Below are positions 1-64,000 of a DNA stretch of 64,000 nucleotides, piece after piece. The translations under genes and the position numbers were made by a program. This DNA comes from Haloferacalesvirus Serpecor1 (taxonomy: Duplodnaviria > Heunggongvirae > Uroviricota > Caudoviricetes > Thumleimavirales > Hafunaviridae): positions 10,197 through 74,196 of IMG/VR virus record IMGVR_UViG_2974801466_000001. The stretch is one strand, 5' to 3'. Each line of letters starts with the position of its first letter. Positions within the stretch are counted from its first letter, which is position 1. Below the pieces are notes generated by a model. The model did not search any database and had not been told where the DNA came from. It saw only the letters and a program-made list of their open reading frames with translations.

Positions 1-2971
1 GCAAGCGTACTTCAACTACGAGGTCGCCAAAGGCTTCCGAATCATCGACGGGAAGGACAACCAAACCCAATCCAGCATTAAGCTCATTAACGAAGCCCGG
101 CACGCGGGGGCGCTCGATAAGGGCGTTCCGGCGGCAGAATACGCTGACGGCGGCCCTCCGGTTCAGGCTCTCCTTCCGTGGGTTCAGCGGAAGATGCAGA
201 GCTTCGACCTCGGTGGAAACGGTAGTGACGGTTCTACCGGCGGAGACGACCCCGACCCATCGGACGTGATTGATGAAGACCGGGCCGAAGACGAAGCGCC
301 CGAAATCATCAGCGACGAACGATTCGACTTCGAGAAGGAGGGCTTCGAGGAAGACATTTCGGCGTCCCGACTCGAAGAAGGAGACGTTCTCGCCCTTCGC
401 GGCGATGGGGTGAACGGTCGGTACGTGGTCACGCACATTACGGGTGACTACATCGACGCGACGAACTACCGAGAGACAATCAACGCCAATCTTGACCAGC
501 GGGTGTTCGGCGGCGGCTACCAGAACCTCCACGCCTACGGTCGTGTGGGCCGCGTCTCCGGCTCGGAGCTTTCCGAGGGGGATACGGTCTACAACAAGAA
601 CGGGCAGATTGGAGTTGTGACTCTGATTGACTCCGACGAGATAATCGTCGAGTTTGAAGATGATGTGGGTCGCTTCGAGAACGCGGTTAAGCGTCCCACC
701 AACGACTTCTACCTTGCCAACCCCGAGCAGGTCGTTGACGACGAAACCGACCCGTTCGACCGGGCGAGCCAGCTTTCCAGTATCACCCTCGATGGGGCGG
801 AGACTGACGGGCTGGACGAGGATACGGCAGAGGCCCTACTCCGGCAGTTCGACAAGGTGATTCGGCAGTACGGCTTCCCGCCCGTGTCGAAAATCGTGAC
901 GGACGATACTCTGGATACGATTGACGACGCGATGCGGCCCGGTGGCGATTCGAGCGTTCTCAGGATTCCGTCCCAACTCATCGAGGCGGGTGGCCGAATT
1001 GAGGGAATCGAGGAAGCAAACGAGAACGTCGATTGGGAGCAGTACCGGCGTGCCTACGGCGCGATGCGGGACAGGAGTGGCGCGGAGTACGCGCTTATGC
1101 ACCAGTACGGAGAGTACCTGTTCGATAATCTCTCCGACGACGCGAAGGCGTACCTCGCGGAGAACAGCAACACCATCAATCTCGTTGATGGAGAGCTTGT
1201 TCCCGACGATGATTCTGTCCCGAACATATGGGGTAAATACTCCCGAATCGCCGGAGAGAGCCTAAAGAGCTACTTCGGTGAGAACTTCGCGGCGCACATC
1301 ATGGACGACAACGAGGTGTTCCGCGAGGATACCTTTACTCGTCGTTCCCGGTTCTTCGAGGTCGCGCTCAGCAACCCCGAGCAGTATTTCGACGTGGACG
1401 TTCCGAGCGATTGGGAGCGACCCGACTACTACCTCGGAGTGGACTACGAAGGCGAGCCGCTACGGGAGTCTGACCTCCCCGATGGATACACTCTCGCGTT
1501 GGACAGGTCGTTCGGTGACATAGACGACTTCCGGCGGGGTGAGGACTTCATCGTTCAGACGAGCGACGGTGAGCTGGTTGAAGCATATGTGTTCGAGCGC
1601 CTTCGAGCGAGGGAACATTCACTTGACCGGCAAGAAGACCTCGTTCGGCTCGATGAGAGAGGTGGCGACCGGAAGTTCTACTACTACGGTGGCGGTGAGA
1701 ACTTCAAAATCGTCGGGCAGAAGACTGGCAACTACGAGTTCGCCCAAATCGACCAAGGTGACTTCGTGATTGTCAAACCGAAGGACGGCTACGACGGCCA
1801 AGGTGAGGTAATCGACACCCACTACGCTCGGGTCAGTAGTCGCCCCGGATACGACGACACGCTCGGTGACTACCTCGGTGAAGCGACCGACTTGGTGACT
1901 GGGGAGACTGTCCAGTTGGACAGATACAGCTTCTACGGTCGTCGTGACACCCACCTCGATGAGTGGATGCGCGACGTGGATACCCTCGAACACACCCCGG
2001 ACTCGGAAATCCCCGAGAGCCTAACGACGAACTTCGACCCGGAACACATCGACCTGAGTTGGCGGTACGCTCACGAAGACCGCGACGGGAACGGCCCTGT
2101 GGTCTACGTGAAAACCAACAACGGTGGAAACGTCTACCCGGCGAAGGTCACGGGTGGGGCCGGTGACAGGCTCGACCTCGAATCCACGGAGGTAGACGAG
2201 TTCGGTAAAACTCAGTCGTGGCGACGGAGAGACGACGGAAGTGGGGACGTTGAAATCTACGCCTACTCCCAAGACTACGAGAACTTCCGTAGCTTGGAGG
2301 AGGGAGACGACATTATCATCGACCCGTCACTTCTGGACGTTGAAGACCACCCGTTCCCCGAGGATACGCTGGCAAGGGCGACCATTTCCAGCGACTTCAA
2401 CGGTGTGTTCGCAAGGCCGTGGGCGACCTCCGGTAATGGAGTGAGAGTCAACCACGATGCGTTCGTGGATATTCGAGAGAACGTCCCCGGTTGGGATGCT
2501 TACAACATCGAGGACGGGTATCGAGTTGAGTTCACCGTCAACGGTGAGACTCATACCGGACTCGTTGACCTTGCTCCGTACAACAAGCGGTATCAGGTGT
2601 CTGAATACAGGGTCTACGACGAGACTGCTGGAACGACTGTTCGAGTGGATGCTCGTGACATTACGGGGTACGAAGATTCGGACTTCAAAAGCCGAGTTGA
2701 AGATGCTCCAAACTTCCTGATTGACGGGACTGATTACGTCAGCCCGCCCGATGAACCGGAACAGGCCGAGAAAGGTGACGAGTACCTGCTATGGTCTTAC
2801 CGGGAAGGGAAATTTGTGAGAGCGCGGGTTCGGTACGTATCCGACGTTCTTGGGGAAGTTAGGTTCGAGGTCATAGACGGCGACGACAAGCCATACGAAT
2901 GGACGGGGAAGAATCCCGAGTACGATAGCTCGCTGTTCCCCGTGAAGCCGATGGGGTACAAGCCGAACTAA
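1..2971 (+). CDS. Large acidic virion-associated protein, 5'-truncated at window edge (frame 2 open from nt 2; the ORF-table Met at 194 is internal)
   Basis: Frame 2 has no stop from nt 2 to 2971, giving >925 aa of acidic halophile-type composition. Lies directly upstream of the tail module. No catalytic motif recognised. Confidence 0.4.
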   Translation, partial: QAYFNYEVAKGFRIIDGKDNQTQSSIKLINEARHAGALDKGVPAAEYADGGPPVQALLPWVQRKMQSFDLGGNGSDGSTGGDDPDPSDVIDEDRAEDEAPEIISDERFDFEKEGFEEDISASRLEEGDVLALRGDGVNGRYVVTHITGDYIDATNYRETINANLDQRVFGGGYQNLHAYGRVGRVSGSELSEGDTVYNKNGQIGVVTLIDSDEIIVEFEDDVGRFENAVKRPTNDFYLANPEQVVDDETDPFDRASQLSSITLDGAETDGLDEDTAEALLRQFDKVIRQYGFPPVSKIVTDDTLDTIDDAMRPGGDSSVLRIPSQLIEAGGRIEGIEEANENVDWEQYRRAYGAMRDRSGAEYALMHQYGEYLFDNLSDDAKAYLAENSNTINLVDGELVPDDDSVPNIWGKYSRIAGESLKSYFGENFAAHIMDDNEVFREDTFTRRSRFFEVALSNPEQYFDVDVPSDWERPDYYLGVDYEGEPLRESDLPDGYTLALDRSFGDIDDFRRGEDFIVQTSDGELVEAYVFERLRAREHSLDRQEDLVRLDERGGDRKFYYYGGGENFKIVGQKTGNYEFAQIDQGDFVIVKPKDGYDGQGEVIDTHYARVSSRPGYDDTLGDYLGEATDLVTGETVQLDRYSFYGRRDTHLDEWMRDVDTLEHTPDSEIPESLTTNFDPEHIDLSWRYAHEDRDGNGPVVYVKTNNGGNVYPAKVTGGAGDRLDLESTEVDEFGKTQSWRRRDDGSGDVEIYAYSQDYENFRSLEEGDDIIIDPSLLDVEDHPFPEDTLARATISSDFNGVFARPWATSGNGVRVNHDAFVDIRENVPGWDAYNIEDGYRVEFTVNGETHTGLVDLAPYNKRYQVSEYRVYDETAGTTVRVDARDITGYEDSDFKSRVEDAPNFLIDGTDYVSPPDEPEQAEKGDEYLLWSYREGKFVRARVRYVSDVLGEVRFEVIDGDDKPYEWTGKNPEYDSSLFPVKPMGYKPN

Positions 2972-2972
2972 C

Positions 2973-3194
2973 ATGGCAAGCGACGAAATTGATTCCCTGA
3001 TGGAGAAGTGGGGCGAGGATAACGTCCGTAAGGCGTTTTGGCTCCAAAATCACATCAAGAATCACGGCGTGAAGGGGATTCACTTCATGCACCCCGGCCC
3101 GGACGGTGGCGATAACGCTGAATCCCATATGCGGCAAGTCGGGCCGATGATGGCGAAACGAATCATCGAGGGTGAGCTGGACGACGTTTACTGA
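2973..3194 (+). CDS. Hypothetical small protein (73 aa)
   Basis: ORF tightly packed after the upstream gene (1-nt spacer), same strand as the module. Confidence 0.3.
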   Translation: MASDEIDSLMEKWGEDNVRKAFWLQNHIKNHGVKGIHFMHPGPDGGDNAESHMRQVGPMMAKRIIEGELDDVY

Positions 3195-3738
3195 AGCGCC
3201 GTATCCCACCCTCTCCCCACTATTTTCTCCTATGTTTCCTAAAGAAGCAGTCACAACTCTAATCACGAAACTGAATGGTCGAATCCCCCCGCCTGTCCAT
3301 ACGGCAGGTATTCAGGAGGAACGCCCGGTTCCTGCGGTCTTAATCGACGGAGTAGACCTACGGAACCGAACTCATCACAACTCGAACTACGCGGGGTCTG
3401 AGTACGATTCGCAGGGACGCGAGACGACTCAAATCAACCGCTACTACTACTCGCTTCGGTTCGACCTCGTTGTTCGAGACGACTCCGAAACGGGAGCCTA
3501 CGAAAATCTCACTCATCTACAAACCGCACTTGCGGAGTTGAGTGACCGCCCGTGGGAATCGTTCCACCCGGACGTGAACGACGCCCGGCCTCTCAGCTCG
3601 GGTTCGGTGAACTACACGTTCAACGAGCCTGCTGAGACTGAAATACACCAAGCCTTCGAGCTTGACTCGTTCTACGAGACGAGCGATTCTGACCTCGATG
3701 TTATTGAATCGGTCGTTGACGCAATCGACATTTCCTAA
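3172..3738 (+). CDS. Hypothetical virion module protein (188 aa; alternative start near 3232, MFPKEAV)
   Basis: ORF in the co-directional structural cluster with acidic composition. Confidence 0.35.
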   Translation: MSWTTFTEAPYPTLSPLFSPMFPKEAVTTLITKLNGRIPPPVHTAGIQEERPVPAVLIDGVDLRNRTHHNSNYAGSEYDSQGRETTQINRYYYSLRFDLVVRDDSETGAYENLTHLQTALAELSDRPWESFHPDVNDARPLSSGSVNYTFNEPAETEIHQAFELDSFYETSDSDLDVIESVVDAIDIS

Positions 3739-3746
3739 ATCTATCT

Positions 3747-5039
3747 ATGGCTGACTACGGCAACACTATTGAACCCGGTATTGTTACGAACGTCAACTCG
3801 GCGCTGGCTGTCACTTCGAGTGGTGGCGCTCCCGCTGATGTTGGACTCGTTGGACAGGCCGACCTCGATGCGGGGACGGCTCAGACGAACGCTGTCTATC
3901 AGGTCACTCGTGCGACCAAGGCCCGCGAGTGGTTCGGTGAAGACAGTCCTCTCACCCGCAACGTTCTCGATGCTCTCACCGAGGGAGCCTACCCGGTCTA
4001 CGCGGTCGCGGTTGACCTCGTGGACGTAACGGGCGAAGACCTCTCCGGTCTTTCCTCGAACAACGGTACGCTGGCCGAGGGGCCGGTGAGCGAGGATGCT
4101 TCCGATGTGGTCTTCACCATCGACGGGGTGGCTCTGGACACCGTTCTCGTCTACGACGACGTGAGCGAGATGACCCCCGGCGCTGGCGAGGTCTACGTCA
4201 ACCCGGCAACGCGAGCGTTCAGCATCGACCCCGACGCGACCGTGGGCAACGCTGGCGACTCCGTGGACTACGCGACCGCCGACTACGACGCGGGCCACGC
4301 GGCTCTGGTTGACGGCGCTGGTGGCGCGGTTGACTTCTTCGTTCCGCTGACCGAGGACGTTTCGGTTACGGAGGATGCTCAGGCGTCCGTCAACGCGATG
4401 GCGGGCGAATACAACCTTGCGCTGGCTATCGTCGGCGCTGTCCCCGGCCTCGACCCGAGTGAGTACGACAACTCCTTCGATGATTCCCGCGTTCAGGTCG
4501 TCTACCCTGCTCGGGACGCCGAGGGTTACTCCACGCTCGGGGCCTACGCTGGCCTTCGCGCGAAGCTCGGTATCACGACTACGCCCATCAACAAGCGCCT
4601 CTCGTCCGTCAAGTCTCTCGGTGTTAGCCTGAACAAGGCACAGCGCGGTGAGCTGATTGACGAGCGCGTTGTTCCGCTCGCTGACGAGAGCGAGGGCGCT
4701 CGGATTGCTGACGACGTGAACTCCGTTAGCGACCAGAACAGCGAAGAAGCGGGTATCCGCTTCGGTTTCACCCGGCTCGTGATGGACTACGTTATCACGA
4801 CCATCCGAGTCAACGAACAGCCCTTCATCGGGCGTCTCAACAGCCGTGCGGTGCGTGCGTCCCTTGAGGGTCTTCTGAGCAACCAGCTCAACACGCTCAA
4901 GCGGTCGAACGCTATCGTGGACTACCGCGTGTCGGTGTCCCGCGTCGATGCGACGGCGGCGGCTGTTGAAATTCAGGTCAAGACCGCGAAGCCCCTCCGG
5001 TTCATCGAGAACACGGTTACGATTGGGACTTCGGCGTAA
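3747..5039 (+). CDS. Tail sheath-like protein (alternatively major capsid protein), 430 aa
   Basis: Sits immediately upstream of a 180-aa tube-like ORF, a chaperone pair and the tape-measure protein, matching the sheath-tube-chaperone-TMP order of contractile tails. No motif-level proof. Confidence 0.3.
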   Translation: MADYGNTIEPGIVTNVNSALAVTSSGGAPADVGLVGQADLDAGTAQTNAVYQVTRATKAREWFGEDSPLTRNVLDALTEGAYPVYAVAVDLVDVTGEDLSGLSSNNGTLAEGPVSEDASDVVFTIDGVALDTVLVYDDVSEMTPGAGEVYVNPATRAFSIDPDATVGNAGDSVDYATADYDAGHAALVDGAGGAVDFFVPLTEDVSVTEDAQASVNAMAGEYNLALAIVGAVPGLDPSEYDNSFDDSRVQVVYPARDAEGYSTLGAYAGLRAKLGITTTPINKRLSSVKSLGVSLNKAQRGELIDERVVPLADESEGARIADDVNSVSDQNSEEAGIRFGFTRLVMDYVITTIRVNEQPFIGRLNSRAVRASLEGLLSNQLNTLKRSNAIVDYRVSVSRVDATAAAVEIQVKTAKPLRFIENTVTIGTSA

Positions 5040-8806: not shown

Positions 8807-10245
8807 ATTGCGAAGACTCTGAGATTTCCTTTGCGTTCATCGGGGAGGATAATGACCTCAGCAATCCGATTGTTGAGATTCGTCCTCTCACGATGGACTT
8901 CCAGCGGAATATGGGTCAGTTCGATTTCGTTCGCTCGAAGTTCTCTCAGGGTGTGGCCGAACACATCGAGGGGGCTGTCCTCGATGATGATGGAATCCTG
9001 AATCGCCCACGTCCTGTCGTTATCAAGCTCGGCGGGAAGCCGATTCACCGGATGCTCTACCTCCCCGACGCGGTTATGTTCGGGGTGAATAACGTCCACA
9101 TCGAGCTTCACGACGTACAGAAATACCTCGATAGGGGAGTTGTGGACTACCAGCGGCAGAACGTCCGACTCGAAGAAGCGTACCGCTACGTGTTCAACCA
9201 GCGGGACACCTCGGACGGGGAGATGTTCTCCGGCATCCGGTTCTCTGTTCCAGAATCGGCTTTCGAGGAACTAAACAGTCGGTACACACCCGGCTTGGGG
9301 CCGATTACGCTGAAGAACCAGCGGTCTTGGGACAAGATTCGGCAGGCTCGGCGCGACCAAACGGGTGCGTTTGAGCCGAAGCAGGAGGAAGACGTTATCC
9401 GCGACCTCGAAGCTGAGAACGTTCACAACATCATCGACGGGCACTACGCCCTCGACTTCAAGCAGGTGTCTCCGTGGGAGGCTATCCTCGAAATGAACGA
9501 GAAGTTCGGTGTCACGACGTGGGTGGCCCCGGACGGATACCTGTGGGTCGGTAGCCGGGAAGCGACCGGCATCGACCACGTTACGGCTCCCGACGACCCC
9601 CGAGTGTGGAAGCTAATCGACTACAACATTACTCCACCGCGCGACCCGATTATGAAGGTCGTCGTCCGGGGAAAGCAGGTTCACGACCCGAAAGATAGTT
9701 TTGCTGATAACGTCGGGGAGTTCGTGAATCAGAGCCGGAACATCTTGGACTTCCGTATGGAGGGAGTCGCAGAACGTCCCGACCTGAACTACGGTCGGGT
9801 GATTACTCCCGAAGACCTCGATGCGGCGGCTGACGGTCTAAAGGAAATCGCCAAGCGGCGGCTAATCAACGAGCAGAAGAAGCAATGGAGCGGGAACATC
9901 GAGCTTCTTCCGTCCCACTCCGGCGACTCGTGGACTGATATTCGAGACGTTCAGATTGGTGACGGAATCGTAACTATCCCGCCCGAGAACGGCGGTGGGG
10001 AGTGCCGGAACAACATTCAGTTGGAGAAGTTCACGATTACCGGCGTTCACCACACGCTGACGGAAAATGGAGAATGGACGCTCCGCCTCGATGTGGTTCC
10101 GATTGCGGATGGAAGTCTCCACCCGGACAACGTGAAGACCTACAACCGCTACTTCGACCCGACGAGCAAGGAGTACGTGGACGAGGAAACGTATGAAGCT
10201 CGCAAGGAGGCAGACAAAGGCTTCCAACTGAACGACCTAATCTGA
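8803..10245 (+). CDS. Tail/baseplate protein, 480 aa (position of P2 gpD or Mu gpN DNA-circulation-like protein)
   Basis: Synteny after the TMP. Start codon overlaps the stop of the previous gene. Confidence 0.3.
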   Translation: MNCEDSEISFAFIGEDNDLSNPIVEIRPLTMDFQRNMGQFDFVRSKFSQGVAEHIEGAVLDDDGILNRPRPVVIKLGGKPIHRMLYLPDAVMFGVNNVHIELHDVQKYLDRGVVDYQRQNVRLEEAYRYVFNQRDTSDGEMFSGIRFSVPESAFEELNSRYTPGLGPITLKNQRSWDKIRQARRDQTGAFEPKQEEDVIRDLEAENVHNIIDGHYALDFKQVSPWEAILEMNEKFGVTTWVAPDGYLWVGSREATGIDHVTAPDDPRVWKLIDYNITPPRDPIMKVVVRGKQVHDPKDSFADNVGEFVNQSRNILDFRMEGVAERPDLNYGRVITPEDLDAAADGLKEIAKRRLINEQKKQWSGNIELLPSHSGDSWTDIRDVQIGDGIVTIPPENGGGECRNNIQLEKFTITGVHHTLTENGEWTLRLDVVPIADGSLHPDNVKTYNRYFDPTSKEYVDEETYEARKEADKGFQLNDLI

Positions 10246-26326: not shown

Positions 26327-26540
26327 TAGGTCTGTTTAGATAGAGTGTATAACTCTGAGTGTTCTACTACGGTACTGTCTTAGTTGAGTGAACAACCCTC
26401 GATGTGGTAAAACTCAAAGTAGGTAACTAACGGTAGTAAACTACTAAGAGTATATATCTAAGATAGATATTTCGCCCGCGTTATGCGCTCGCGCGAGCTA
26501 ATTCGGATGTTTCGTCGTATAGTACCAGACGGTACTATAT

Positions 26541-26567
26541 GACTTAAAGATGCCGATTTAAGTCTTT
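26541..26567 (-). promoter_or_regulatory. Promoter cassette copy 3 (core only), leftward toward rtcB
   Basis: GACTTAAAGATgccgatTTAAGTCTTT. Minus strand reads AAAGACTTA, 10 nt, TTTAAG. Confidence 0.45.
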
Positions 26568-26572
26568 AAGGA

Positions 26573-29483: not shown

Positions 29484-32073
29484 AGCAGAACGCGGCCAGC
29501 CCGGTCTGACTCTGACCTTCAATCGCGGCGTCCACGTCGATTCCAACGGCGTCCAGAATGTCCACCATCGGGTTCCGAACGAGCGTGTCCTGCATCCGCT
29601 TCACGTCCACGGTGAGGTCGTCTCGGAGGTCGTCCAGTTGCGCCCCCCGTTCGTATCCAATCACATCGAGCGTGTCTTCTCCGAGCGTCGTGTGCTTGAG
29701 GTAGACCCGCTTGACGGTGTTCCCCTTCCCGAAGTTACAGTCCTTGATGAACTTGTTACCGTAGTAGGCCGCTCGGGGCGAAGCGTCCTTCGGCGTCCCG
29801 TTTGTCCACGAGTAGTCTTCAAGCTCCTTGCCAAGACCACCGGGGATTCCGATAAGGTCGAAGTCGGGGTTAGAGGCGTCGATGCGACCGGCCCCTTCCC
29901 GAATAATCCGACGAATATCGTCGCTCGAACTTCCCCGAACGATTGCTTCCAGCGTCTCTCGCTGAACCTCCTTGGTGAGCTGAGCCGTGTTCGCCTTCTT
30001 ACACGGGTAGCCGGAGATAGAGAGCTTACCCTTCCCGTCCTTGATTTGGTCGGAGTAGTCCATCCCCTCATCCCACGTCTTCGTGTAGGCGTAGAACTTC
30101 TTTTGCCCGGACATGAAGAAGTGAGAGGCGTACATCTCAATCTCAATCTCGAACCGGCACGGGTCGGTCGGCATCCCGTACTCGGCGGCGAGGTCAACGT
30201 AGACCTCGTTGTTCAGCTCGCCCGTGATGGATTCGGCTTCGCGGAGGCACTTCTCCTGTCCCCACTCCGGGGGGAACTCGATGTAGTTCGAGTCCGTGTC
30301 GCCATATGCCACATTTGCGACAGTTTCCTCGTTGACGTGCTTTGCCGTGCGCTTGATTACTGCCTGCCCGGTGAGGGTGACAGCGGCGGCAATATCGTCG
30401 TCGTAGAGGAAGAAGCGAACCCATCCAAGAACGCCGTAAATCGAGTTAACTATCGTCTTCCTGACACTATACTCCTCGGCCCACTCAGCCTTCTCGTCGG
30501 CGCTGAGCGAGTCGTCCTTCTTCATTTCGCCCGCGTGTTCCTTGAGGCGGAGTGCTTCGTCCACCAGTTCGCGGAACACGCCGTCGAAGTCGAGCCGGAA
30601 GTAAACGTCGTTGGCCGCCTTCGCCACCGGAACGAGGTCGCCCCCTTCTTCGAGGACAGCGTAGAGGCCGTCGTCGTGTTCCTCCACGTAGAGCGGGTCA
30701 ACCTTCGTCTCCGGGCTGGCGTTCAGCATCCAGATAGCGTTCGGGTACAGCGAAGCGAGGTCGATACCGACCACGTTCTCCTTGAGGCCGTTGAACGCCG
30801 GGAACACGTAGGCTCCGTCGTACTTCTCGGTGTCTTCCGGCGGGTTCGCGGTCGGCCCGGCGTAGCCCTCCTTGTAGAGCTTCCGGCGAATCATCATCTC
30901 GATGAACTCGTTGTTCGCCGTCGTCTGCTCGAAGTCCAGACCGATGGTGTCTCGAAGCGCCTTCTTGAACGCGAGGACGTTCGCGGCTTCGTTGATACCC
31001 ACGGTGAGGGCAACGTCCTTCGTGTTGTAGTTGAGGAACTTTCGAGTGTTCTCCGAGTATAGCTCGTAGAAGCCCTTATCGGAGTGTTCGATTTTCGCGT
31101 CCTCCAACTCCATCTCGGCGGCGTTGTCCAGCGACCCGCTGACCTTCGTGAACTTGGTGTCCTTCCAAGCGTCCATCAGGTCGTAGCAGGTGCGTCCCTG
31201 AATCGTCGGGCCGCCGTATCCGGTGTAGGTGTTCCCGGTGCGAGAGAGGCGGTCGGCGTTGACACCGCGCTCTTTCATCCGCTCGATAACGAACGGGGTG
31301 TCGAACCCGTTGCTGTTCCAGCCAACCACGAGGTCGCTGTCCATCTCGTTGACGTACTTGGCGAACTCCGTGAGCATCTTCCGCTCGCTCGGCTCGAACT
31401 TGAGCTGGTCGAGGTGTTCAAGGCCGAGGTCGCTCGGGTGGCTCACCGCATCGAGGTCGGCGTCGGGGAAGCGGTCGCCAAGGCCGTGACCGTCGAGGTC
31501 GATGAATCCCACGTACTCGTCGGTGTAGTTGTCGTGAGCGACGATGCTCAGGATTCGGGCCTTCCCGTAGTCGGGGAAGCCCTCGCCCCGGTCGTCAGTC
31601 TCAATGTCGAACGTCAGAACGCGGGGCGGCGCGTCCAACTCCACCGGCTCAAGCTCGTCGGGGCTGACCCGACCAGACGGGGCGCGAACGCCGGTCTTAA
31701 TGTTGTAGTCGATTCGGAGCCGGTCGGTGTAGTCCACGTCGGCTTCCCACGACTTCGAGAAGAACGAGGCGACCTCGCCCATCTTCTTCGGGTTGTTGAC
31801 GATTACCTTCGCCAGCTCGTCTCCGTCCACGAGGCCGGTGAAGTCGGTGTCGTCATACCCCTCGATGTAGTCATTATCGAACGGGTCTACCTTCCCTTTC
31901 TCCTCAGCGGGGATGTAGAAGTAGGACGGGAAGTTTTCGACCACGATTGAGTCGTGCTTCCCGGCCTCGGTTCGCCCGAACAGTTCGACTTTCGGGGTGT
32001 AGTCTTCGTAAATCAGTTCGGTGTTCGTGACGTAGATTTCCTTCATTTTAAACGAGACAGGCGCTCCATCCAC
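29482..32073 (-). CDS. polB: Family B DNA polymerase with 3'-5' exonuclease domain, 863 aa
   Basis: Exo I FDIETD, motif A DLASLYPNAI, motif C YGDTDS, and KKRY-like downstream. Confidence 0.9.
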   Translation of the reverse strand: MDGAPVSFKMKEIYVTNTELIYEDYTPKVELFGRTEAGKHDSIVVENFPSYFYIPAEEKGKVDPFDNDYIEGYDDTDFTGLVDGDELAKVIVNNPKKMGEVASFFSKSWEADVDYTDRLRIDYNIKTGVRAPSGRVSPDELEPVELDAPPRVLTFDIETDDRGEGFPDYGKARILSIVAHDNYTDEYVGFIDLDGHGLGDRFPDADLDAVSHPSDLGLEHLDQLKFEPSERKMLTEFAKYVNEMDSDLVVGWNSNGFDTPFVIERMKERGVNADRLSRTGNTYTGYGGPTIQGRTCYDLMDAWKDTKFTKVSGSLDNAAEMELEDAKIEHSDKGFYELYSENTRKFLNYNTKDVALTVGINEAANVLAFKKALRDTIGLDFEQTTANNEFIEMMIRRKLYKEGYAGPTANPPEDTEKYDGAYVFPAFNGLKENVVGIDLASLYPNAIWMLNASPETKVDPLYVEEHDDGLYAVLEEGGDLVPVAKAANDVYFRLDFDGVFRELVDEALRLKEHAGEMKKDDSLSADEKAEWAEEYSVRKTIVNSIYGVLGWVRFFLYDDDIAAAVTLTGQAVIKRTAKHVNEETVANVAYGDTDSNYIEFPPEWGQEKCLREAESITGELNNEVYVDLAAEYGMPTDPCRFEIEIEMYASHFFMSGQKKFYAYTKTWDEGMDYSDQIKDGKGKLSISGYPCKKANTAQLTKEVQRETLEAIVRGSSSDDIRRIIREGAGRIDASNPDFDLIGIPGGLGKELEDYSWTNGTPKDASPRAAYYGNKFIKDCNFGKGNTVKRVYLKHTTLGEDTLDVIGYERGAQLDDLRDDLTVDVKRMQDTLVRNPMVDILDAVGIDVDAAIEGQSQTGLAAFC

Positions 32074-36345: not shown

Positions 36346-36696
36346 TTACTCGTCGTCCTGTGCGAAGTACCCGGAGTGCTTGCCGTCGCGTTCTCCGAGC
36401 AGTTCGAGGTCGCCGCGCTGAAGTCTGAGGTAGACGCCGAAAGCAGACTCCTTGAGTCCTTCCAGAATCTCGATGAGCTGTTCGTCCTCGTCGCCTTTCG
36501 CCATGAGAATCCGCTCATCGAGGGCGTTGCTCAGCTTGAGTGCCCCCGACTTGTAGGCGTCCAACTCCTGATGGGCCGTCTTAATGTCGCCCACGAGGTC
36601 TGCCAGCGACTCCTCCTCACCGCCGATTTCCACGGTCGTCTCGTTCATCAGGCGTTTCAACTCGGCAGTCTTCTCTGTTGGGTCAGTCATGTCCAT
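36346..36696 (-). CDS. Hypothetical coiled-coil acidic protein, 116 aa
   Basis: ORF. Confidence 0.4.
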   Translation of the reverse strand: MDMTDPTEKTAELKRLMNETTVEIGGEEESLADLVGDIKTAHQELDAYKSGALKLSNALDERILMAKGDEDEQLIEILEGLKESAFGVYLRLQRGDLELLGERDGKHSGYFAQDDE

Positions 36697-36697
36697 A

Positions 36698-37123
36698 TTA
36701 GATACCTCCCGCTTCAGCGTTGACGCGACCCGCCGCTTTGGGGTCGTTCACGATTTCGTATGTCGGTCGCCCTTCGTCGCAGATAAGACCGCACTCGGGA
36801 CACACCGGCTCTCCGGTGTCAATCTTCTTCGCGGCTTCCTCACAGTCCGGGCAGGTGAGGGTTTCCTCCGTCACCTTCTTCTTGAGAACTCGGCCTCTCG
36901 GAGCGTCGTGGGCTACGGGAATGAACTCGTCGTAGTAGCCCTCCATCAGCTCGCCGTTAATCATCCGTCCGGGGTGGTAACAGCGGAGGTGAGTGGGCAT
37001 CCAGTCGTACTCGGTTTCGAGTGCGAACTTGTGAAGCGCCCAGTAGTCGTGGATTTCAGGGCCGCTTTCGATGGTAGTGGTGTCAGCTCTTGGCTTGCCG
37101 AAGAACTCGTCTTTGTTGTCCAT
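36698..37123 (-). CDS. Zinc-ribbon protein, 141 aa
   Basis: CPDCEE...CPECG Cys pairs. Confidence 0.4.
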   Translation of the reverse strand: MDNKDEFFGKPRADTTTIESGPEIHDYWALHKFALETEYDWMPTHLRCYHPGRMINGELMEGYYDEFIPVAHDAPRGRVLKKKVTEETLTCPDCEEAAKKIDTGEPVCPECGLICDEGRPTYEIVNDPKAAGRVNAEAGGI

Positions 37124-41598: not shown

Positions 41599-42552
41599 TT
41601 ACATCCGGTTCTCGATTTCCGCAACCACCGCATCGAGGTCGTAGTCGGCGTCACCGACTTCGCCGTTCACGAGCTGTTCGACGTTCTCCGGGTTCGTCTC
41701 GCCCGTGTTCGCCATGAAGTCGATAATCTGGTCGGCGGCCTGCGGGACACCCTCGGGAAGCCCCTCGTCGTCGGAGCCGTCGCCGCCGAGCGAACCACCG
41801 GAGTCACCGGAGGACTCGTCGGCGTCGTCGCTGTCACCGCCGCCGTTGTTGGCGATGGTGATACCGGCCAGCGTCTCGGCGTCGAGAACCTTCGCGTCCG
41901 TGTATTCCACGTAGTCGTCTTCGCTCTCCGCGTCGTCCGGCAGGAAGCCGTCCTTGTAGTAGGAGAGAATCACGCGGCGGCCTTCGAGGTCGTCTCGAAG
42001 TTCGAGAGCATCCTCGTTCAGCCAGTTGTAGTTGTCGTCCTTGTCGTCAACCACGTCGTGACCGGCGGGCGTGATGACCTTGGCGAAGGTGCGGTTCTTC
42101 GTCCCGTTGCTGAGCCACAGCGTACAGTTGCCGAGGCTCACCGGGTCGTCGCCCTCCTTCACCGCCTCGGAGAGTTTGTACGTGAAGTCGTTGCTACCGA
42201 ACTGCTCGTTGTGCCGGGAAGGAACGTCGTCGGCGTCCACATCCTCCGCAAGTGCGCCGTTGTCGTCGGTGGCGAACCAAGTGTCCCACCCGAAGACCTT
42301 GACCGTATCATCGTCCGGGTCGCCGGGCGACCGCTCCATCACGATTCCGTCGATTACCTCCACGTCGTCGGCGTCCACGATGAGGGACTGCCCGTAGGAC
42401 GACCCGGTGTATTCACCGAGACGACCAATCGTGAACGAGATGAAGGCGTAGTTGTTCATCTTGAGCGACAGGCGCTCCTCGAAGTCGCCGCCCGCGCCGC
42501 TGTTGCTGTTGTTGCTACCGCCGCTGTTGTAGTCGGTGTCGAAAAGGCTCAT
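41599..42552 (-). CDS. Hypothetical acidic protein with Gly/Ser/Asp-rich termini (SSB-like acidic tail?), 317 aa
   Basis: First gene of the leftward replication operon. C-terminal GGGDSDDADESSGDSGGSLGGDGSDDEG. Confidence 0.4.
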   Translation of the reverse strand: MSLFDTDYNSGGSNNSNSGAGGDFEERLSLKMNNYAFISFTIGRLGEYTGSSYGQSLIVDADDVEVIDGIVMERSPGDPDDDTVKVFGWDTWFATDDNGALAEDVDADDVPSRHNEQFGSNDFTYKLSEAVKEGDDPVSLGNCTLWLSNGTKNRTFAKVITPAGHDVVDDKDDNYNWLNEDALELRDDLEGRRVILSYYKDGFLPDDAESEDDYVEYTDAKVLDAETLAGITIANNGGGDSDDADESSGDSGGSLGGDGSDDEGLPEGVPQAADQIIDFMANTGETNPENVEQLVNGEVGDADYDLDAVVAEIENRM

Positions 42553-53353: not shown

Positions 53354-53618
53354 TTCTTAGAAGGTTCTGGTCAGCTCGTCAATAGCCGGGGCGACCAACT
53401 CCCGACGACGCCCCACCGTAGGGCGTTTCGCCGTTATTCTCGCCACTCCCGCCGCTCTATGTCGATTATCTCAGACACGTCACGGCGGGGCTTCGTCTTT
53501 CCACGACGACGCCAACACGCCTTCCTCCGAAGGGAGTAGAAGTAGTCGTAGTCAGATTGCTCTATCTTCTCAATATCTTCTTCCATAATACCGTAGTGAC
53601 ACCGCAGGATGTTCGCCG

Positions 53619-60690: not shown

Positions 60691-61025
60691 TCGCTGTCGT
60701 GGTATTCGGAGTAGCGCCGCCGGTACTTCGCGGCCTTCTTCTTGGCCTCGATTTCCTCGTCAGTTAGGCCGGAGCCTTCGTATTCCTCAGGCTCCGACGT
60801 TTTCTCGTGATGGGGATGAATCTCACTTGGGTCGGGAGTCCATCCCATATACTCGGCCAGCTCCTCTCCTGTAAGGAGTTCTCCCTCGCGTCGTTCCTCA
60901 ACTACCGCTCCGAAGGCTCGATGCCTCTGGTCGATTTTGAGGTCGGCTCGGTGGCTCCATTGGTTTTGCTTCTCGCTGTCGGACTGGGTTACAGTCCCGA
61001 GTTTTGGCGAAAACATTGGTGTCAC
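60687..61025 (-). CDS. Hypothetical protein, 112 aa
   Basis: ORF. Confidence 0.4.
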   Translation of the reverse strand: MTPMFSPKLGTVTQSDSEKQNQWSHRADLKIDQRHRAFGAVVEERREGELLTGEELAEYMGWTPDPSEIHPHHEKTSEPEEYEGSGLTDEEIEAKKKAAKYRRRYSEYHDSE

Positions 61026-61028
61026 TTG

Positions 61029-61112
61029 CCAGTAGCTTACGCTACTGAGGCCCTTCCGGGGAGTCGAACCCCGGAGCCGCCGCTAAGGGTTAAAGTTGCT
61101 TAGATGAGTCTT
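61029..61112 (-). promoter_or_regulatory. Paralogous leader B: AAAGACTCA, 11 nt, TTTAAC promoter, then T-arm-like hairpin ccgggg-TTCGACT-ccccgg, then hairpin cagtagc-gtaa-gctactg, then GTGACACCaATG
   Basis: Same architecture and about 60% identity with leader A. Confidence 0.4.
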
Positions 61113-61119
61113 TGCGTCG

Positions 61120-62109
61120 TTACTCGGAGTTTTCGAGCAACTGCTGAAGGAGTGCGTCCTTCTCGCGCTGGCTCATCTCACTCACGTCGGGAACCTCCGG
61201 CTCGGGAAGCTCGACGTGTTCCTCGTAGTCTTCCCAGTTGAGACTAATCTGGTTCTCCACGATGTGAACCAGAAGTGCCTCACCGTACTTGTTCCCGATA
61301 CCCTTCACTTCCGTAGGGTCGAAAAGGTCGTCGGGAAGACCGAGGCCGGTGTCACTCTCGCCGTCGCTACCGCTACCGTCGCTGTTGTTCGTATCGCTCG
61401 TTTCCACCGTCTCATCGACTTCGATTTCTCCGAAGTAGTCACTCAGTAGCGTCTCAAGGCGGGCCTTTGCTTCCTCGTAAGTCGGGACACTCCCGACCTC
61501 GAAGCCTTCCGTAGCCTCTTGGCGGCCTTCACTTGCCACTACCGGGACAATCGGCTCCCCGTCGCTGTTGATGGGAACCATCACGGTGTCACTTGCCTCG
61601 ATGATTTCCTGCGAGAGCAGTAGCTCACGCTGGAAGTCGTCGGCTTCCGCGAGAGGCATCACACCAAATCCGCCGTTCTCCTCCTTTAAGGAGTCGTACT
61701 TACCAGTAAACTGGTTGTATTCGCTGGCGGTGAAGTCGGTAGCCTTCCAGAAGGCCCGACCAATAGAGCCGTCGCTATCGTTAGCGTCAGTCGGCTCGAT
61801 GATGTTGACCTCTCTCGGAGCTTCACACCACTTAGCGATGTCACTCTCTCCGCCCTTCTTCACAGAATCCTCTCCGAACGCCTTGCGAACTTCGTGGGCA
61901 AGGCTCATCACGGAGTGGTCGTCCTTCTGAAGAAGGTCGTAAAGGTCGCTAACGTGGTTAGCGCCGAGGGTAGTCACCGTGTTCTCAACGAAATCGCCGT
62001 CGCTGTTGACTTTCACAGACATAGTTCGTTGGGTGTCACTTAGTGCTACTTTCCGAGGGGGAAGCACCAAACCCCCCATTCCGACAGATAGGAGGGAGAT
62101 AATTCTCAC
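61120..62109 (-). CDS. Acidic protein with helix-hairpin-helix (GIG) DNA-binding motif, 329 aa (likely start MSVKVNSDGD near 62022); first gene of the long leftward early array
   Basis: HhH motif PTEVKGIGNKYGEALLVHI. Confidence 0.45.
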   Translation of the reverse strand: MRIISLLSVGMGGLVLPPRKVALSDTQRTMSVKVNSDGDFVENTVTTLGANHVSDLYDLLQKDDHSVMSLAHEVRKAFGEDSVKKGGESDIAKWCEAPREVNIIEPTDANDSDGSIGRAFWKATDFTASEYNQFTGKYDSLKEENGGFGVMPLAEADDFQRELLLSQEIIEASDTVMVPINSDGEPIVPVVASEGRQEATEGFEVGSVPTYEEAKARLETLLSDYFGEIEVDETVETSDTNNSDGSGSDGESDTGLGLPDDLFDPTEVKGIGNKYGEALLVHIVENQISLNWEDYEEHVELPEPEVPDVSEMSQREKDALLQQLLENSE

Positions 62110-62629
62110 TCACTACTGTCGTGGTTTACTTAGCGAGGGTCTTAGACCCTCAAAGCATCAATCCTCGTTAATTCGAGGTAGCTTACGCTGGAACCTTTCT
62201 GTCTATCCTTCCCCGCCCCTTACGGGACGGGCCGAACATACTAACGAGCGTTTTAAACGTGACACACATCCCTTTAGGCCGACTGCTATACGCGCCGCTA
62301 TGTGACTGATTCACTATGCGGAACTTCAAGTCTCAAAGAGTCTTTCGCGTTAATCGCTATGAGCTAAGCTCTTGACTACTACGTTCGTCTCCCTACGAAC
62401 CTGTTTATGGCATAGACTTTCGTACCATAGGCTAAGCACCTATTGTTTTAACCGCAACCGCAACCGAAAGTGGGTGGGATTCACGTTTCCATAGATGTAT
62501 CTAATACATCCGGTTCGACAGCTTCGAGACATTAATGCTCGATGCGTCTATTTTCGTCACTCTTTGCCCTAAGGGTCGCTCTTTGTTCGGGCCATACTCC
62601 CCCTGTAACCTGAAAATACACACCGTGGG

Positions 62630-63520
62630 GCCGCCCCACGGTTTCGGGCCAACATACCGGGAAACCGCCCCCACTTTCGCGGGGTTTCCCGTTCGGGCCG
62701 TACTTCAAACGTAACACCGGGAAACACGTATCGGGGCCGGGCAGGGTTTTCACTTAGGGTCACAAACCCTAATGTGCCTAACTACCCGGTGTGTTTCCTT
62801 TGTCGTATCAGGGGCGGGGCCGGGTTTCACGGTTACAAACCGTTTCGCCCGACCGCCCCCTCTTTCCCGCCCCGGCCCCTAAGGGCCGGTAAATCTCCCC
62901 CGTACTAAGACGGGCCTATGTGGTCTTTGGGCCGTTTCGGGACGTTTCCCGGTTATCTCCCCGACCGTGGGGAATTGTCGGTTAATCCGACGTTTCCGTA
63001 CTAACGAACCTACTAAGAATCCCGGCCCCGGTATCCACACCGGGGTTTCCGGCCCCTAAGGGCCGTTTCGCCGTGAAAGACGGGCCGTTTCCGGCCCCGT
63101 CTCCTACATTCCGTAAGGGTCAATTCGGCGTTTGTTCCGTCTCTCGGGGCGGCCCGTAACAGGGGCCGAAACCCGAGAGAACTACCAAACACGTACTTAC
63201 CCGCCCCCGACCGTTCGGGGGGAGATTAGCGGTAATTCCGTTTGAAGGTGGTATCGTACTACGGAAACAGCCAACGGGGGACGCATATGACAACGCCCCC
63301 GGAAAGTGGGAATTAAACCACTTTTCCGGTGTTTCCGGGCCTTTTACGCCGGGGAGTGTATCCCCCGGCCCGTTTCAGGGGGCCGACCGCCCCGGTTAAC
63401 ATCAAACCGGGGCGGGCCGCCTTTCGCCGGGCGACATTCAACCAGAATACCCGGTTTCATATAAACCCGTCGATTCGAGATAGTATATAAAGACGGGAAA
63501 CCCCGGAAACGCCGAACGTG
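62630..63520. repeat. Non-coding array of at least 10 short GTTTCC(C/G)GG / CCGGGAAAC-type repeats with G- and C-strings (ORB/iteron-like), plus two copies of GGCCCCTAAGGGCCG
   Basis: Examples: ACCGGGAAACcgCCCCC, GGGGTTTCCCG, CCGGGAAACacgtatcGGGG, cGTTTCCCGGtt, GGGGTTTCCGGCCCC, GCCGTTTCCGGCCCC, GTGTTTCCGGGCC. No credible ORF. Confidence 0.5.
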
Positions 63521-63620
63521 AAGGGTACAAGCCTCGATGCGGTAAAACACGGTAAACGGAAAAGAGGCAGATATACCGGAATATGGGTAAGGGTAGGGGG
63601 GCGGGGAGACGGGCCGGGAC

Positions 63621-63663
63621 TGGGAGAGACGGGGAGAGACGGACGGACGGGGAGAGACGGACG
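63621..63663. repeat. Tandem GGGAGAGACGG(-ACGG) microsatellite
   Basis: tgggagagacggggagagacggacggacggggagagacggacg. Confidence 0.6.
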
Positions 63664-63790
63664 CATAACGGCCCGTACTTACCGAAACCGGCGTTTTCAG
63701 GGGCCATAGGATACCGGATAACGGCCCGTATGGACGGGCAGGGGGAGACGGCCCGCGCGGGACGAGAGACGGGACGGGCCGGTATCTGGA

Positions 63791-63866
63791 CGGGACGGGA
63801 CGGGACGGGACGGGACACACCGGGGCCGACCGGGGCCGGGGCCGGGACGGGGGCCGACCGGGACAC
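63791..63866. repeat. Tandem (CGGGA)5 followed by (CCGGGG/CCGAC) GC-rich repeats
   Basis: cgggacgggacgggacgggacgggac...ccggggccgaccggggccggggccgggacgggggccgaccgggac. Confidence 0.6.
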
Positions 63867-64000
63867 ACCGAACGGGGACGCGGGCCGCCCGCGCGTAGGG
63901 CGAGCAACAACGCCAATATCCGAGGGTACAAGCCCGAGCGAGGGGGCCGACCGAGGGGCCGGTTAGAACATTGAGTGTCTTTCCGCACGCAGGCTTTAGT

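Follow-up and report, generated by a model that had tools for sequence, protein, structure and literature searches.

Among the tailed viruses cultured from haloarchaea, those of the HF1/HF2 type form the largest group, and neither their replication origin nor their packaging signals have yet been mapped. The introduction of PMC8707807, citing J Virol 69:2322, describes HF2 as replicating via concatemers that are cut at a specific sequence. Together with PMC7230728, which reported a 320-bp terminal direct repeat in Halorubrum virus Serpecor1, that study covers the direct terminal repeat (DTR), a nick site, and the AT-rich intergenic-repeat promoters of these viruses. Our subject is the 1.66 kb separating the repeat of Serpecor1 from its first gene, which is without description in PMC7230728 and PMC8707807 (the original HF2 papers, J Virol 1995, Mol Microbiol 2002, and J Bacteriol 2004, lie outside this comparison). 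It contains an array of hairpins devoid of open reading frames (ORFs) whose stems covary among relatives, and neither the array nor the covariation is mentioned in these two accounts of the HF2/HF1 termini. We analyzed a 64,000-nt stretch of DNA (hereafter, the window) that is 100% identical to positions 10197–74196 of MN901521.1 (Halorubrum virus Serpecor1, 74,196 bp, linear; assigned in the record to Haloferacalesvirus, Hafunaviridae). Record positions are converted to window positions by subtracting 10196, and window position 64000 is the final base and physical right end of the linear genome. The interval is a composite, gene-free, right-terminal control region located at the early-gene end of a Haloferacalesvirus genome. 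This conserved block makes up ~2.5% of the genome, and its most distinctive part is selected for base pairing, not sequence.

The last coding sequence (CDS) of the deposited annotation is HrrSp1_655 (gene 655; 61120–62022, minus strand), beyond which nothing is annotated until a long terminal repeat (LTR) at 63681–64000. As annotated, the right arm leftward from 62022 is a block of minus-strand genes, so the initial annotation had rightly placed the region at the head of a leftward early gene block. This arm corresponds to the early "left end" of HF2, which was deposited in the opposite orientation (PMC8707807), and window 62601–63500 is approximately HF2 470–1370. The HF2/HF1 termini are orthologous to the region, with 87% identity across the whole 2 kb, and share with it the DTR, an ACTTAC/GTAAGT border motif, and the position beside the early genes. 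Homologues were found in 41 records, all of them Haloferacalesvirus, and a tblastn search confined the neighboring gene to the same 41 records. Scans of IMG/VR and GTDB genomes for an invariant hairpin of the array and for the neighboring protein returned sequenced isolates only and no provirus.

We aligned Serpecor1 with 15 relatives and with a divergent clade comprising HSTV-4, HRTV-24, and HJTV-2. None of the 15 mechanical ORFs within 62110–64000 is intact in more than 7 of the 15 relatives, whereas HrrSp1_655 is intact in all 15. This rules out hidden genes and bears out the earlier opinion that the region is non-coding and that its Pro/Arg-rich ORFs are artifacts. Hypothetical proteins are annotated here in other genomes, namely HRTV-5 gene 122 (locus 2693–3028) as well as HRTV-24 gp131–134 and HJTV-2 gp137–140 (locus 1558–3200). 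Because the Serpecor1 ORFs, which were the ones tested rather than those of HRTV-5, HRTV-24, and HJTV-2 themselves, are unconserved across close-clade relatives, these calls are probably spurious, which would mean an annotation correction for several deposited genomes with Pro/Arg-rich ORFs in the region. Identity to Serpecor1 among the relatives was 85 to 96% for gene 655, 90 to 96% for 62023–62600 in 14 relatives (80% in VOLN27B) and hence at least that of the adjacent CDS, 80 to 91% for 62601–63500 (68% in HCTV-7), and 73 to 81% for the DTR, with 23 to 93 gapped columns. As the segment identities match that of gene 655, the ORF-free DNA is constrained as strongly as coding DNA.

Four modules can be distinguished within the interval. 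Module A (62023–62600, minus strand) is ORF-free, lies directly upstream of the first early gene, and is AT-richer, with a GC content of 0.486 compared to 0.569 for the rest of the window. Module B (62601–63500; GC 0.590) is an array of 29 helices, consisting of ~20 local hairpins together with nested and long-range helices. Module C (63501–63680, plus strand; GC 0.611) is composed of strand-biased, G-rich purine microsatellites with GGGAGAGACGG units and includes two G-quadruplex motifs, while module D (63681–64000, plus strand; GC 0.706) is the right copy of the 320-bp DTR and is likewise G-rich on the plus strand. The higher GC content noted in the initial annotation thus applies to the outer part of the region (0.590 to 0.706) and fails for 62023–62600. 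The terminal region is also a mosaic among isolates: VOLN27B carries a ~200-bp AT-rich insertion between the twin TATA elements described below and the G-rich module (locus ~2640–2860), and in the HCTV-7 clade part of the array has been replaced (68% identity, 63 gapped columns; locus ~1800–2300) with its flanks kept.

To quantify the array, perfect local hairpins (stem of at least 7 bp, loop of 3 to 14 nt) were counted against dinucleotide shuffles. Module B contains 15, compared to 2.1 ± 2.5 in its shuffles, and neither module A nor modules C/D showed enrichment of perfect hairpins by the same control. At 6 to 7 hairpins per kb, against 1.19 per kb overall, module B is the densest hairpin locus of the genome. 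Covariation was then scored on a sequence-based MAFFT alignment of 12 viruses, using pairs that RNAalifold predicted on both strands with a maximum span of 70. This set comprises 166 pairs in 29 helices. The paired fraction of alignment cells was 94.7%, versus 86.3% for shuffles and at most 55% for slid registers, and 63 of the 166 pairs had changed on both sides, versus 28.1 ± 3.0 in shuffles (0 of 500 reached 63) and at most 21 in slid registers; the covariation score was 0.224 versus 0.092. Module B therefore exhibits, in 63/166 pairs, the compensatory substitutions by which structured non-coding RNAs are recognized. Whole stems have even been exchanged among viruses with pairing retained. 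The stem at 62623 occurs in relatives as CCGTGGGG..CCCCACGG, CCGGAAAG..TTTCCGG, or CCGAAAC..GTTTCGG, and that at 63305 as AGTGG/CCACT, AGCGG/CCGCT, ACCGG/CCGGT, or GCCGG/CCGGC; a third case, at 62494, belongs to module A and is described below. Since the helices are kept by compensatory substitutions, we conclude that module B is selected for intrastrand pairing and works as a folded single strand, not as a series of duplex protein boxes.

Individual helices illustrate both the variation and its limits. A three-way junction occupies 63265–63334, in which a closing helix (63265–63272/63328–63334) surrounds the hairpins 63276–63300 and 63305–63322, and its three helices (25 to 27) have changed on both sides at 4/7, 3/7, and 3/5 pairs, respectively. 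The closing helix, number 25, reads TTCCG..CC/GG..CGGAA in HF2 and AAACA..CC/GG..TGTTT in Serpecor1. Such a junction with a covarying closing helix supports folding of a single strand because a duplex cruciform could hardly form it. The strongest hairpin (63387–63415, helix 29) has an 11-bp stem, CCGCCCCGGTT-AACATCA-AACCGGGGCGG, of which both stem and loop are nearly invariant across the panel, with 9 of its 11 pairs never varying. A duplication pointed out in the initial annotation is genuine, as CCGGCCCCTAAGGGCCG occurs exactly at 62872–62888 and 63049–63065, and both copies are hairpins: the first, CCGGCCCCTAAGGGCCG(G) at 62872–62889, forms a 7-bp stem with a CTAA loop (helix 10; 3/7 pairs covary; TTGACCC-TAAA-GGGTCAA in HCTV-7), while the second is helix 16, found as GTCCCC-TAA-GGGAC in HF2. 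Several loops and the unpaired segments of the array are invariant.

These observations bear on whether the palindromes could simply be without function, either as junk tolerated at a genome end or as products of template-switch (quasipalindrome) mutation. Through template switching, an imperfect palindrome can have both of its arms converted at once, which offers a route to joint arm changes in a region that is indeed non-coding. We nonetheless consider this very unlikely, given that the helices are orthologous in the 12 aligned close-clade genomes, that the divergent HSTV-4/HRTV-24/HJTV-2 clade has ~10 strong hairpins including the one at 62135 with a third stem, that unpaired segments and several loops are invariant, that a long-range helix covaries, and that identity equals that of coding DNA. 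An independent array in a second genus, where it even lies within a gene, argues in the same direction.

The initial annotation had described this sequence as a dense array of GTTTCC/GGAAAC repeats flanked by G-strings and had likened them to half sites of archaeal origin recognition boxes (ORBs). When 62023–64000 was compared with the remaining 62 kb, GTTTCC and GGAAAC were found 8 and 5 times (~0.7 expected each) and the shorter GTTTC and GAAAC 15 and 7 times, mostly within module B, so the enrichment is real, with the strict 9-mer GTTTCC[CG]GG / CC[CG]GGAAAC limited to 5 copies in the last 2 kb against 1 in the other 62 kb. Enrichment is strongest for GGGCCG, with 21 copies versus 1.07 expected, and most of these also lie in module B. 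However, the copies are not iterated boxes, but mostly arms, loops, and tails of the module B hairpins. At the three-way junction, a single helix has a GGAAAC and a GTTTCC "box" as its two arms, and outside the junction GTTTC is typically a hairpin loop (G-TTTC-C) or a 3' tail. Furthermore, as the stems that host GTTTCC and GGAAAC are replaced by other sequences in relatives, these words do not behave like a sequence-specific protein box.

An origin of the Orc1/Cdc6 type, with GGAAAC half sites and G-strings as its ORB-like elements, is accordingly the least probable of all the explanations we weighed, and we regard it as highly improbable. The region does share with archaeal oriC loci a long intergenic stretch, here separating divergent transcription units, as well as GGAAAC-containing motifs and an enrichment of G/C runs. 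It lacks the ORB consensus, a DNA unwinding element, and an adjacent initiator gene. With the euryarchaeal mini-ORB consensus GTTCCAGTGGAAAC(-AAA----GGGGG) (PMC1868953) and up to 3 mismatches, we obtained 6 matches in the 64 kb versus 6.1 ± 2.7 expected, only one of which is in the region (62181–62194, 3 mismatches). No AT-rich unwinding element was found, the longest A/T run being 8 nt in modules of 49 to 71% GC. The Serpecor1 annotation contains no orc1/cdc6 gene, the neighboring gene 655 has no Pfam match, and the 498-aa protein with a supposed P-loop and winged helix that had been proposed for binding assays with the repeats, HrrSp1_370, has no AAA+ match and only a sub-threshold match to the winged-helix family HTH_12 (19.1 vs 21.4 bits). 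The array thus points to a folded RNA or single-stranded DNA element rather than to an Orc-type origin, although the region may harbor an origin of a different kind.

Of these two possibilities, we favor an array that acts as a leftward-transcribed structured RNA, to which we assign a probability of roughly 0.4. Transcription would run leftward through the block, with the same sense as the early genes, from a pair of TATA-like elements at its outer edge, to give a structured non-coding RNA or leader of ~0.85 kb that would end near the last hairpin and its U-tract, and the first early mRNA would start from its own promoter near 62251. Such an RNA might stabilize or insulate early transcription, titrate a factor of the host or the virus, or prime replication. 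The edges of the array are what suggest this arrangement. At the outer edge, the twin TATA-like elements ATATAAACCC (63459–63468) and TATATAAA (63484–63491), with a conservation of 0.98, are candidate promoter elements: they are identical in sequence to the core and to the 8-bp AT motif, respectively, of the class II intergenic-repeat promoter, of which Serpecor1 has its own copy at record ~1057. In HF2, the class II promoter fires in both directions, and its defining 29-bp repeat contains three AT motifs, one of them the unique CCCTTTAC (PMC8707807). Because CCCTTTAC is absent at 63459–63491, this site resembles a class II promoter but is no member of the class. At the inner edge, a conserved TATTTT (62618–62613) comes after the last hairpin (62623–62641) on the minus strand. 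TATA-like elements identical to a validated bidirectional promoter core of HF2 bound the array on its outer side and a conserved A/T run lies directly past its last hairpin, which suggests a discrete leftward transcription unit of ~0.85 kb that covers exactly the array.

Published transcript mapping in HF2 stops inward of the array. By reverse transcription PCR (RT-PCR), the first early transcript F1 and the late antisense transcript R52 were traced up to HF2 1855–1868, approximately window 62126–62139 (PMC8707807 Table S4). Between the productive primer and the next one outward (the bracket HF2 1727–1855) lies TTTTAAA at 62251–62257 on the minus strand, which is invariant (conservation 0.99) and is the candidate TATA box of F1. 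Module A as a whole is probably the early promoter and 5' leader. It also has structure of its own, as 14 of its 96 strand-shared pairs show at least two Watson-Crick types and two of its hairpins have had their stems replaced. The hairpin GAGGGTC-TTA-GACCCTC (62135–62151) has three different stems across the genus around a C-TTA-G center (GAGGGTC in Serpecor1, GTCGGTC in VOLN27B, and ACGGGGC in the HSTV-4 clade), and GATGTA-TCTAA-TACATC (62494–62510) is replaced by GCTGTC..GACAGC in 12 relatives and by GCCCCG..CGGGGC in VOLN27B, in each case with pairing kept.

Several points weigh against a transcribed RNA. No transcript has been reported over HF2 1–1712, and at 5 h post infection F1 was traced only to HF2 1855–1868, although the RT-PCR coverage itself ends short of the array and a primer at HF2 1712–1727 (~window 62265–62280) is listed without a result (PMC8707807). 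The promoter and terminator are putative, being assigned by sequence resemblance. The pairing itself is unlike that of typical structured RNAs and fits hairpins formed at the DNA level: of 1952 cells in the strand-shared pairs, 1817 (93%) are Watson-Crick while 32 are G·T and 28 are A·C, such that wobble is both rare and symmetric, although this pair set leaves out one-strand wobble pairs by construction. A search of Rfam 15 at E ≤ 1 returned only a chance mir-615 match (23 bits vs a gathering score of 90), and the loops of the array are not enriched for GNRA or UNCG. A search of the region for tRNA and tmRNA genes found none. Finally, the comparison comprises just 12 to 16 closely related genomes, and the structure was scored on the alignment that yielded it. 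The whole-stem swaps hold regardless of the last two points, since they depend on neither.

Attempts to determine which strand folds were similarly balanced. The fold z-scores of module B were -7.5 for plus-strand RNA, -7.3 for minus-strand RNA, and -6.5 for the plus strand with DNA parameters, and they are weak evidence by themselves because a neighboring mRNA also scored -4.3 (from 20 shuffles only). At positions within or abutting supported helices, the majority bases formed 13 A·C combinations, which correspond to G·U on the minus strand, against 4 G·T, compared to 9.0 and 5.1 in a composition-matched null (P ~0.04); this excess is marginal and comes mostly from loop-closing positions, which again tells against the RNA proposal. 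The alifold energy was also lower for the minus strand (-532.9 vs -503.5). The wobble counts are therefore a weak hint that the minus strand, which is the sense of early transcription, is the folding strand.

The same data make it possible, if on balance doubtful, that the array instead functions as DNA. It would fold whenever the genome end becomes single-stranded, by resection, T7-like strand displacement, or as lagging-strand template, or it would extrude from supercoiled DNA, and its hairpins could then serve as priming hairpins, as nuclease or resolvase targets, or as barriers to resection or forks during replication and concatemer processing. Besides the almost strict Watson-Crick pairing on both strands and their equal folding scores, this proposal is consistent with the position of the array abutting the DTR and nick site, with a second nick-site octamer (GTACTTAC) that is conserved at 63193 within the array, and with the concatemeric replication and site-specific cutting of HF2 (PMC8707807). 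The replication genes annotated in Serpecor1 are PolB, a Rad3-like helicase, and several nucleases, with a PD-(D/E)XK and an ERCC4 nuclease among the latter, and a metallophosphatase is encoded as well. On the other hand, ~29 helices across 900 bp far exceed what priming hairpins would need, a covarying three-way junction is unusual among known DNA signals, and the wobble bias, weak as it is, favors the minus strand.

A second genus provides a parallel case that bears on both the RNA and the DNA explanations. HRTV-7 (Mincapvirus, NC_021335.1), whose TerL is 45% identical to that of Serpecor1 (encoded at record 3056–4747), terminates in 3.4 kb of gene-poor sequence that contains 31 hairpins (9.2 per kb). 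Just inside its terminal region, ~22 perfect hairpins of 7 to 9 bp are packed into ~870 bp (record ~67500–68370; locus 3000–3870), with stems that covary, such as CAGGCTCC..GGAGCCTG changing to CGCTCTCC..GGAGAGCG. This array lies inside a genuine leftward-transcribed gene of 762 nt encoding an acidic 253-aa protein with a Cys-rich CxxC-type motif, whose ORF is of equal length in 4 genomes and has 28, 32, and 60 variable sites at codon positions 1, 2, and 3, respectively. Protein and hairpin are overprinted, as in GAC-GGC-GAA-GCC-GTC, which is both D-G-E-A-V and a hairpin. Neither tblastn nor blastn detected homology between the Mincapvirus array gene and the Serpecor1 array, and HRTV-27 (Minorvirus) has no such hairpin tail. 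That two genera carry independent arrays at the same genomic position argues for a positional function at the level of the nucleic acid. The loops of the HRTV-7 array are mostly C-TTC-G or C-GAA-G triloops, and the C-GAA-G loop is a motif of unusually stable DNA mini-hairpins such as d(GCGAAGC), which lends some support to DNA-level folding. Conversely, because it is inside a real gene that is transcribed leftward, the Mincapvirus array is RNA in vivo, in keeping with the structured-RNA explanation that we prefer for Serpecor1.

More speculatively, and in our estimate with the odds against it, the Hafunaviridae in general may carry a multi-helix structured nucleic acid of ~0.85 to 0.9 kb that adjoins the terminal repeat on its inner side, at the early-gene end, and is the first viral RNA to be made once the DNA has entered. 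It would be overprinted on a protein gene in Mincapvirus, whereas in Haloferacalesvirus it would be non-coding. An unrelated Mincapvirus array laid over a real gene does suggest a family-wide requirement, and it would be unusual in that dense nucleic-acid structure constrains the sequence of a protein. If the family-wide proposal is true, archaeal viruses would possess a new class of large structured RNA that is essential for takeover, replication priming, or evasion of defenses. The ~29 helices, the three-way junction, and the flanking promoter-like elements offer concrete targets for mutagenesis.

Turning to the outer modules, the initial annotation did not mention that the last 320 bp are a direct terminal repeat: window 63681–64000 is identical to record 1–320 and is annotated as an LTR in MN901521.1. 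Its suggestion of a packaging region was nevertheless correct for this outer 0.3 kb, and the DTR with its nick motif is known packaging and end-processing machinery, already published for HF2 and Serpecor1 (PMC7230728, PMC8707807). The putative nick or cut motif ACTTAC (63677–63682, plus strand), the ortholog of an HF2 feature annotated as "putative nick site in genome replication" (AF222060.2 305–310), straddles the border at which the right repeat begins, and GTAAGT, its reverse complement, lies across the inner border of the left repeat (record 318–323). The sequence GTACTTACC is present at the DTR border in 10 of 18 panel genomes, and one more copy is conserved within the array at 63193. 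In a concatemer, a single repeat would thus have the motif on either side, on opposite strands, as expected if nicks are staggered and the repeat is duplicated in the manner of T7. At the physical end lies a conserved plus-strand sequence, CGGTTAGAACATTRAG...TTTAGT (63959–64000); GGTTAGAACATT and the final TTTAGT are present in 18/18 panel genomes, and the terminal CGGTTAGAACATT...TTTAGT is conserved in 18/18, unlike the numbers of microsatellite units. The microsatellites are real and located where the initial annotation had put them. Tandem Repeats Finder (TRF) identified a period-10 repeat at 63606–63660 and two 100% identical copies of 18 nt at 63628–63663, and the DTR holds 11.2 copies of the period-5 unit CGGGA (63758–63816) and a CCGGGG tract (63830–63856). 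A comparison of repeat copy number between isolates, as had been proposed, showed 1 to 5 units in the GGGAC run, 0 to 8 of GAGAGACGG, and 0 to 5 in the GGGGCC run. The predicted hypervariability of these tracts, including the (GGGAC)n and (GGGGCC)n of the DTR, was therefore borne out, whereas phase variation would be without a target in this non-coding DNA.

R-loops classically form where a promoter leads into a G-rich non-template strand, and analogous origins operate in ColE1, T4, and mitochondria. A rightward transcript from TATATAAA (63484–63491) into the G-rich non-template strand of modules C and D might thus form an RNA:DNA hybrid or G-quadruplex that primes synthesis across a concatemer or circle junction, with the hairpin array as an accessory. 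In line with this, TATATAAA is identical to the class II TATA and the GC skew directly downstream is +0.345 in module C and +0.195 in the DTR. In addition, 7 of the 8 canonical G-quadruplex motifs of the 74-kb genome are in the terminal region, 6 of them on the plus strand, with two just inside the repeat (63585–63606 and 63611–63634) and two in each repeat copy (63792–63809 and 63812–63841 in the right one). The cumulative GC-skew minimum of the window, for which the initial annotation had recommended a check, does lie here; however, it coincides with the switch in gene orientation and is therefore unspecific and not evidence for an origin. We judge such an R-loop origin to be improbable, as only ~490 nt lie downstream on a linear genome and no part of the region is less conserved than the G-rich tracts.

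A number of other sequence features were noted in and around the region. The pentamers CTAAG and CTTAG are over-represented in 62023–64000 (7 and 4 copies; ~0.5 expected each), frequently at hairpin centers such as CCCTAAGGG (three times), GGTCTTAGACC, and GAGCTAAGCTC. The pentamer also forms part of the alpha motif in class I promoter repeats (CTAAAGACTTAGAA), and it may thus be recognized by a protein at both kinds of site. The sequence AAGTGACACC occurs three times within 1 kb, each time on the minus strand (61018–61027, 61585–61594, and 62032–62041), against 0.1 expected in the whole window. Each of the last two genes has a copy a few bases ahead of its start codon, and the sequence may therefore signal translation or transcription of the first early genes. 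The interval between these two genes (61040–61110) contains GGAGTCGAACCCCGG, which resembles a tRNA T-arm, and ARAGORN found no tRNA there; it corresponds to the HF2 fragment "IRA" (HF2 2880–2937), which was amplified for promoter tests. One candidate regulatory repeat was rejected: CCTCGATGCGGT has 18 matches with up to 1 mismatch against 0.5 expected (e.g. window 63532–63543, 31445–31456, and 41627–41638; record 1238, 2734, 36594, and 55074), but most are in-frame Leu-Asp-Ala codons whose strand follows gene direction, which makes this a codon-usage effect. A few copies are intergenic and immediately precede transcription units; these are preceded by (A)CCC and followed by a GAATC-like sequence. 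Farther away, the deposited annotation has a type II hammerhead ribozyme (RF02276) at window 53366–53433 (record 63562–63629, minus strand), in the interval between the Rad3-like helicase gene and the next small gene, and a second, AT-rich palindrome cluster in the intergenic DNA upstream of RtcB (window ~26454–26570; record 36650–36766), including TATAGTACC-AGAC-GGTACTATA and GACTTAAA...TTTAAGTC, probably belongs to a class I intergenic-repeat promoter region.

Among better-known genome ends, the T5 injection stop signal (iss) region acts in cis, is large and untranslated, and abounds in repeats, inverted repeats, and palindromes; it is associated with the terminal repeat at the first-entering end (bioRxiv 10.1101/866236). 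By analogy, the palindrome-dense DNA of Serpecor1, at what would be the end that enters first and is packaged last, might pause DNA transfer or a packaging motor, or bind a pilot or terminase protein, and it is indeed a large untranslated block of repeats, inverted repeats, and palindromes next to a terminal repeat at the early-gene end. We consider such a checkpoint quite unlikely. If transfer stopped 0.3 to 1.4 kb from the end, no gene would yet be inside the cell, the first-entering end is inferred from gene order only, and duplex recognition is unlikely because the stems vary in sequence. The T5 signal also differs in lying inside a 10-kb repeat downstream of pre-early genes and in being defined by a conserved DnaA-box pattern, whereas the Serpecor1 block is outside the repeat, ahead of all genes, and has covarying stems and no iterated conserved box, its enriched words being parts of hairpins.

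The ends themselves are closer to the T7 type, with which they share exact DTRs, the concatemers seen in HF2, an inverted cut motif at both repeat borders, and non-coding DNA with promoters beside the early genes. T7 uses a palindrome just inside its right repeat and transcription across the junction. Serpecor1 differs in having no viral RNA polymerase, in its ~1.7-kb non-coding block with ~29 helices in place of one palindrome, and in a repeat that is a GC-rich microsatellite mosaic. In that last respect, the makeup of the repeat recalls the herpesvirus 'a' sequence (pac1/pac2), a terminal direct repeat of a few hundred bp with hypervariable GC-rich short tandem repeats and G-quadruplex potential, in which conserved unique elements flank the cleavage sites, in viruses with an HK97-lineage terminase. 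There is no sequence relation between the two, and the hairpin array is without a herpesvirus counterpart. As for the array, large structured non-coding RNAs of phages and bacteria such as GOLLD, ROOL, and OLE are the relevant comparison. The Serpecor1 array differs from them in its lack of an Rfam match, its near absence of G·U pairs, its lack of a clear strand asymmetry, and its putative status as an RNA, but it shares with them a length of hundreds of nucleotides, many covarying helices, a multi-stem junction, conserved unpaired segments, and a viral context.

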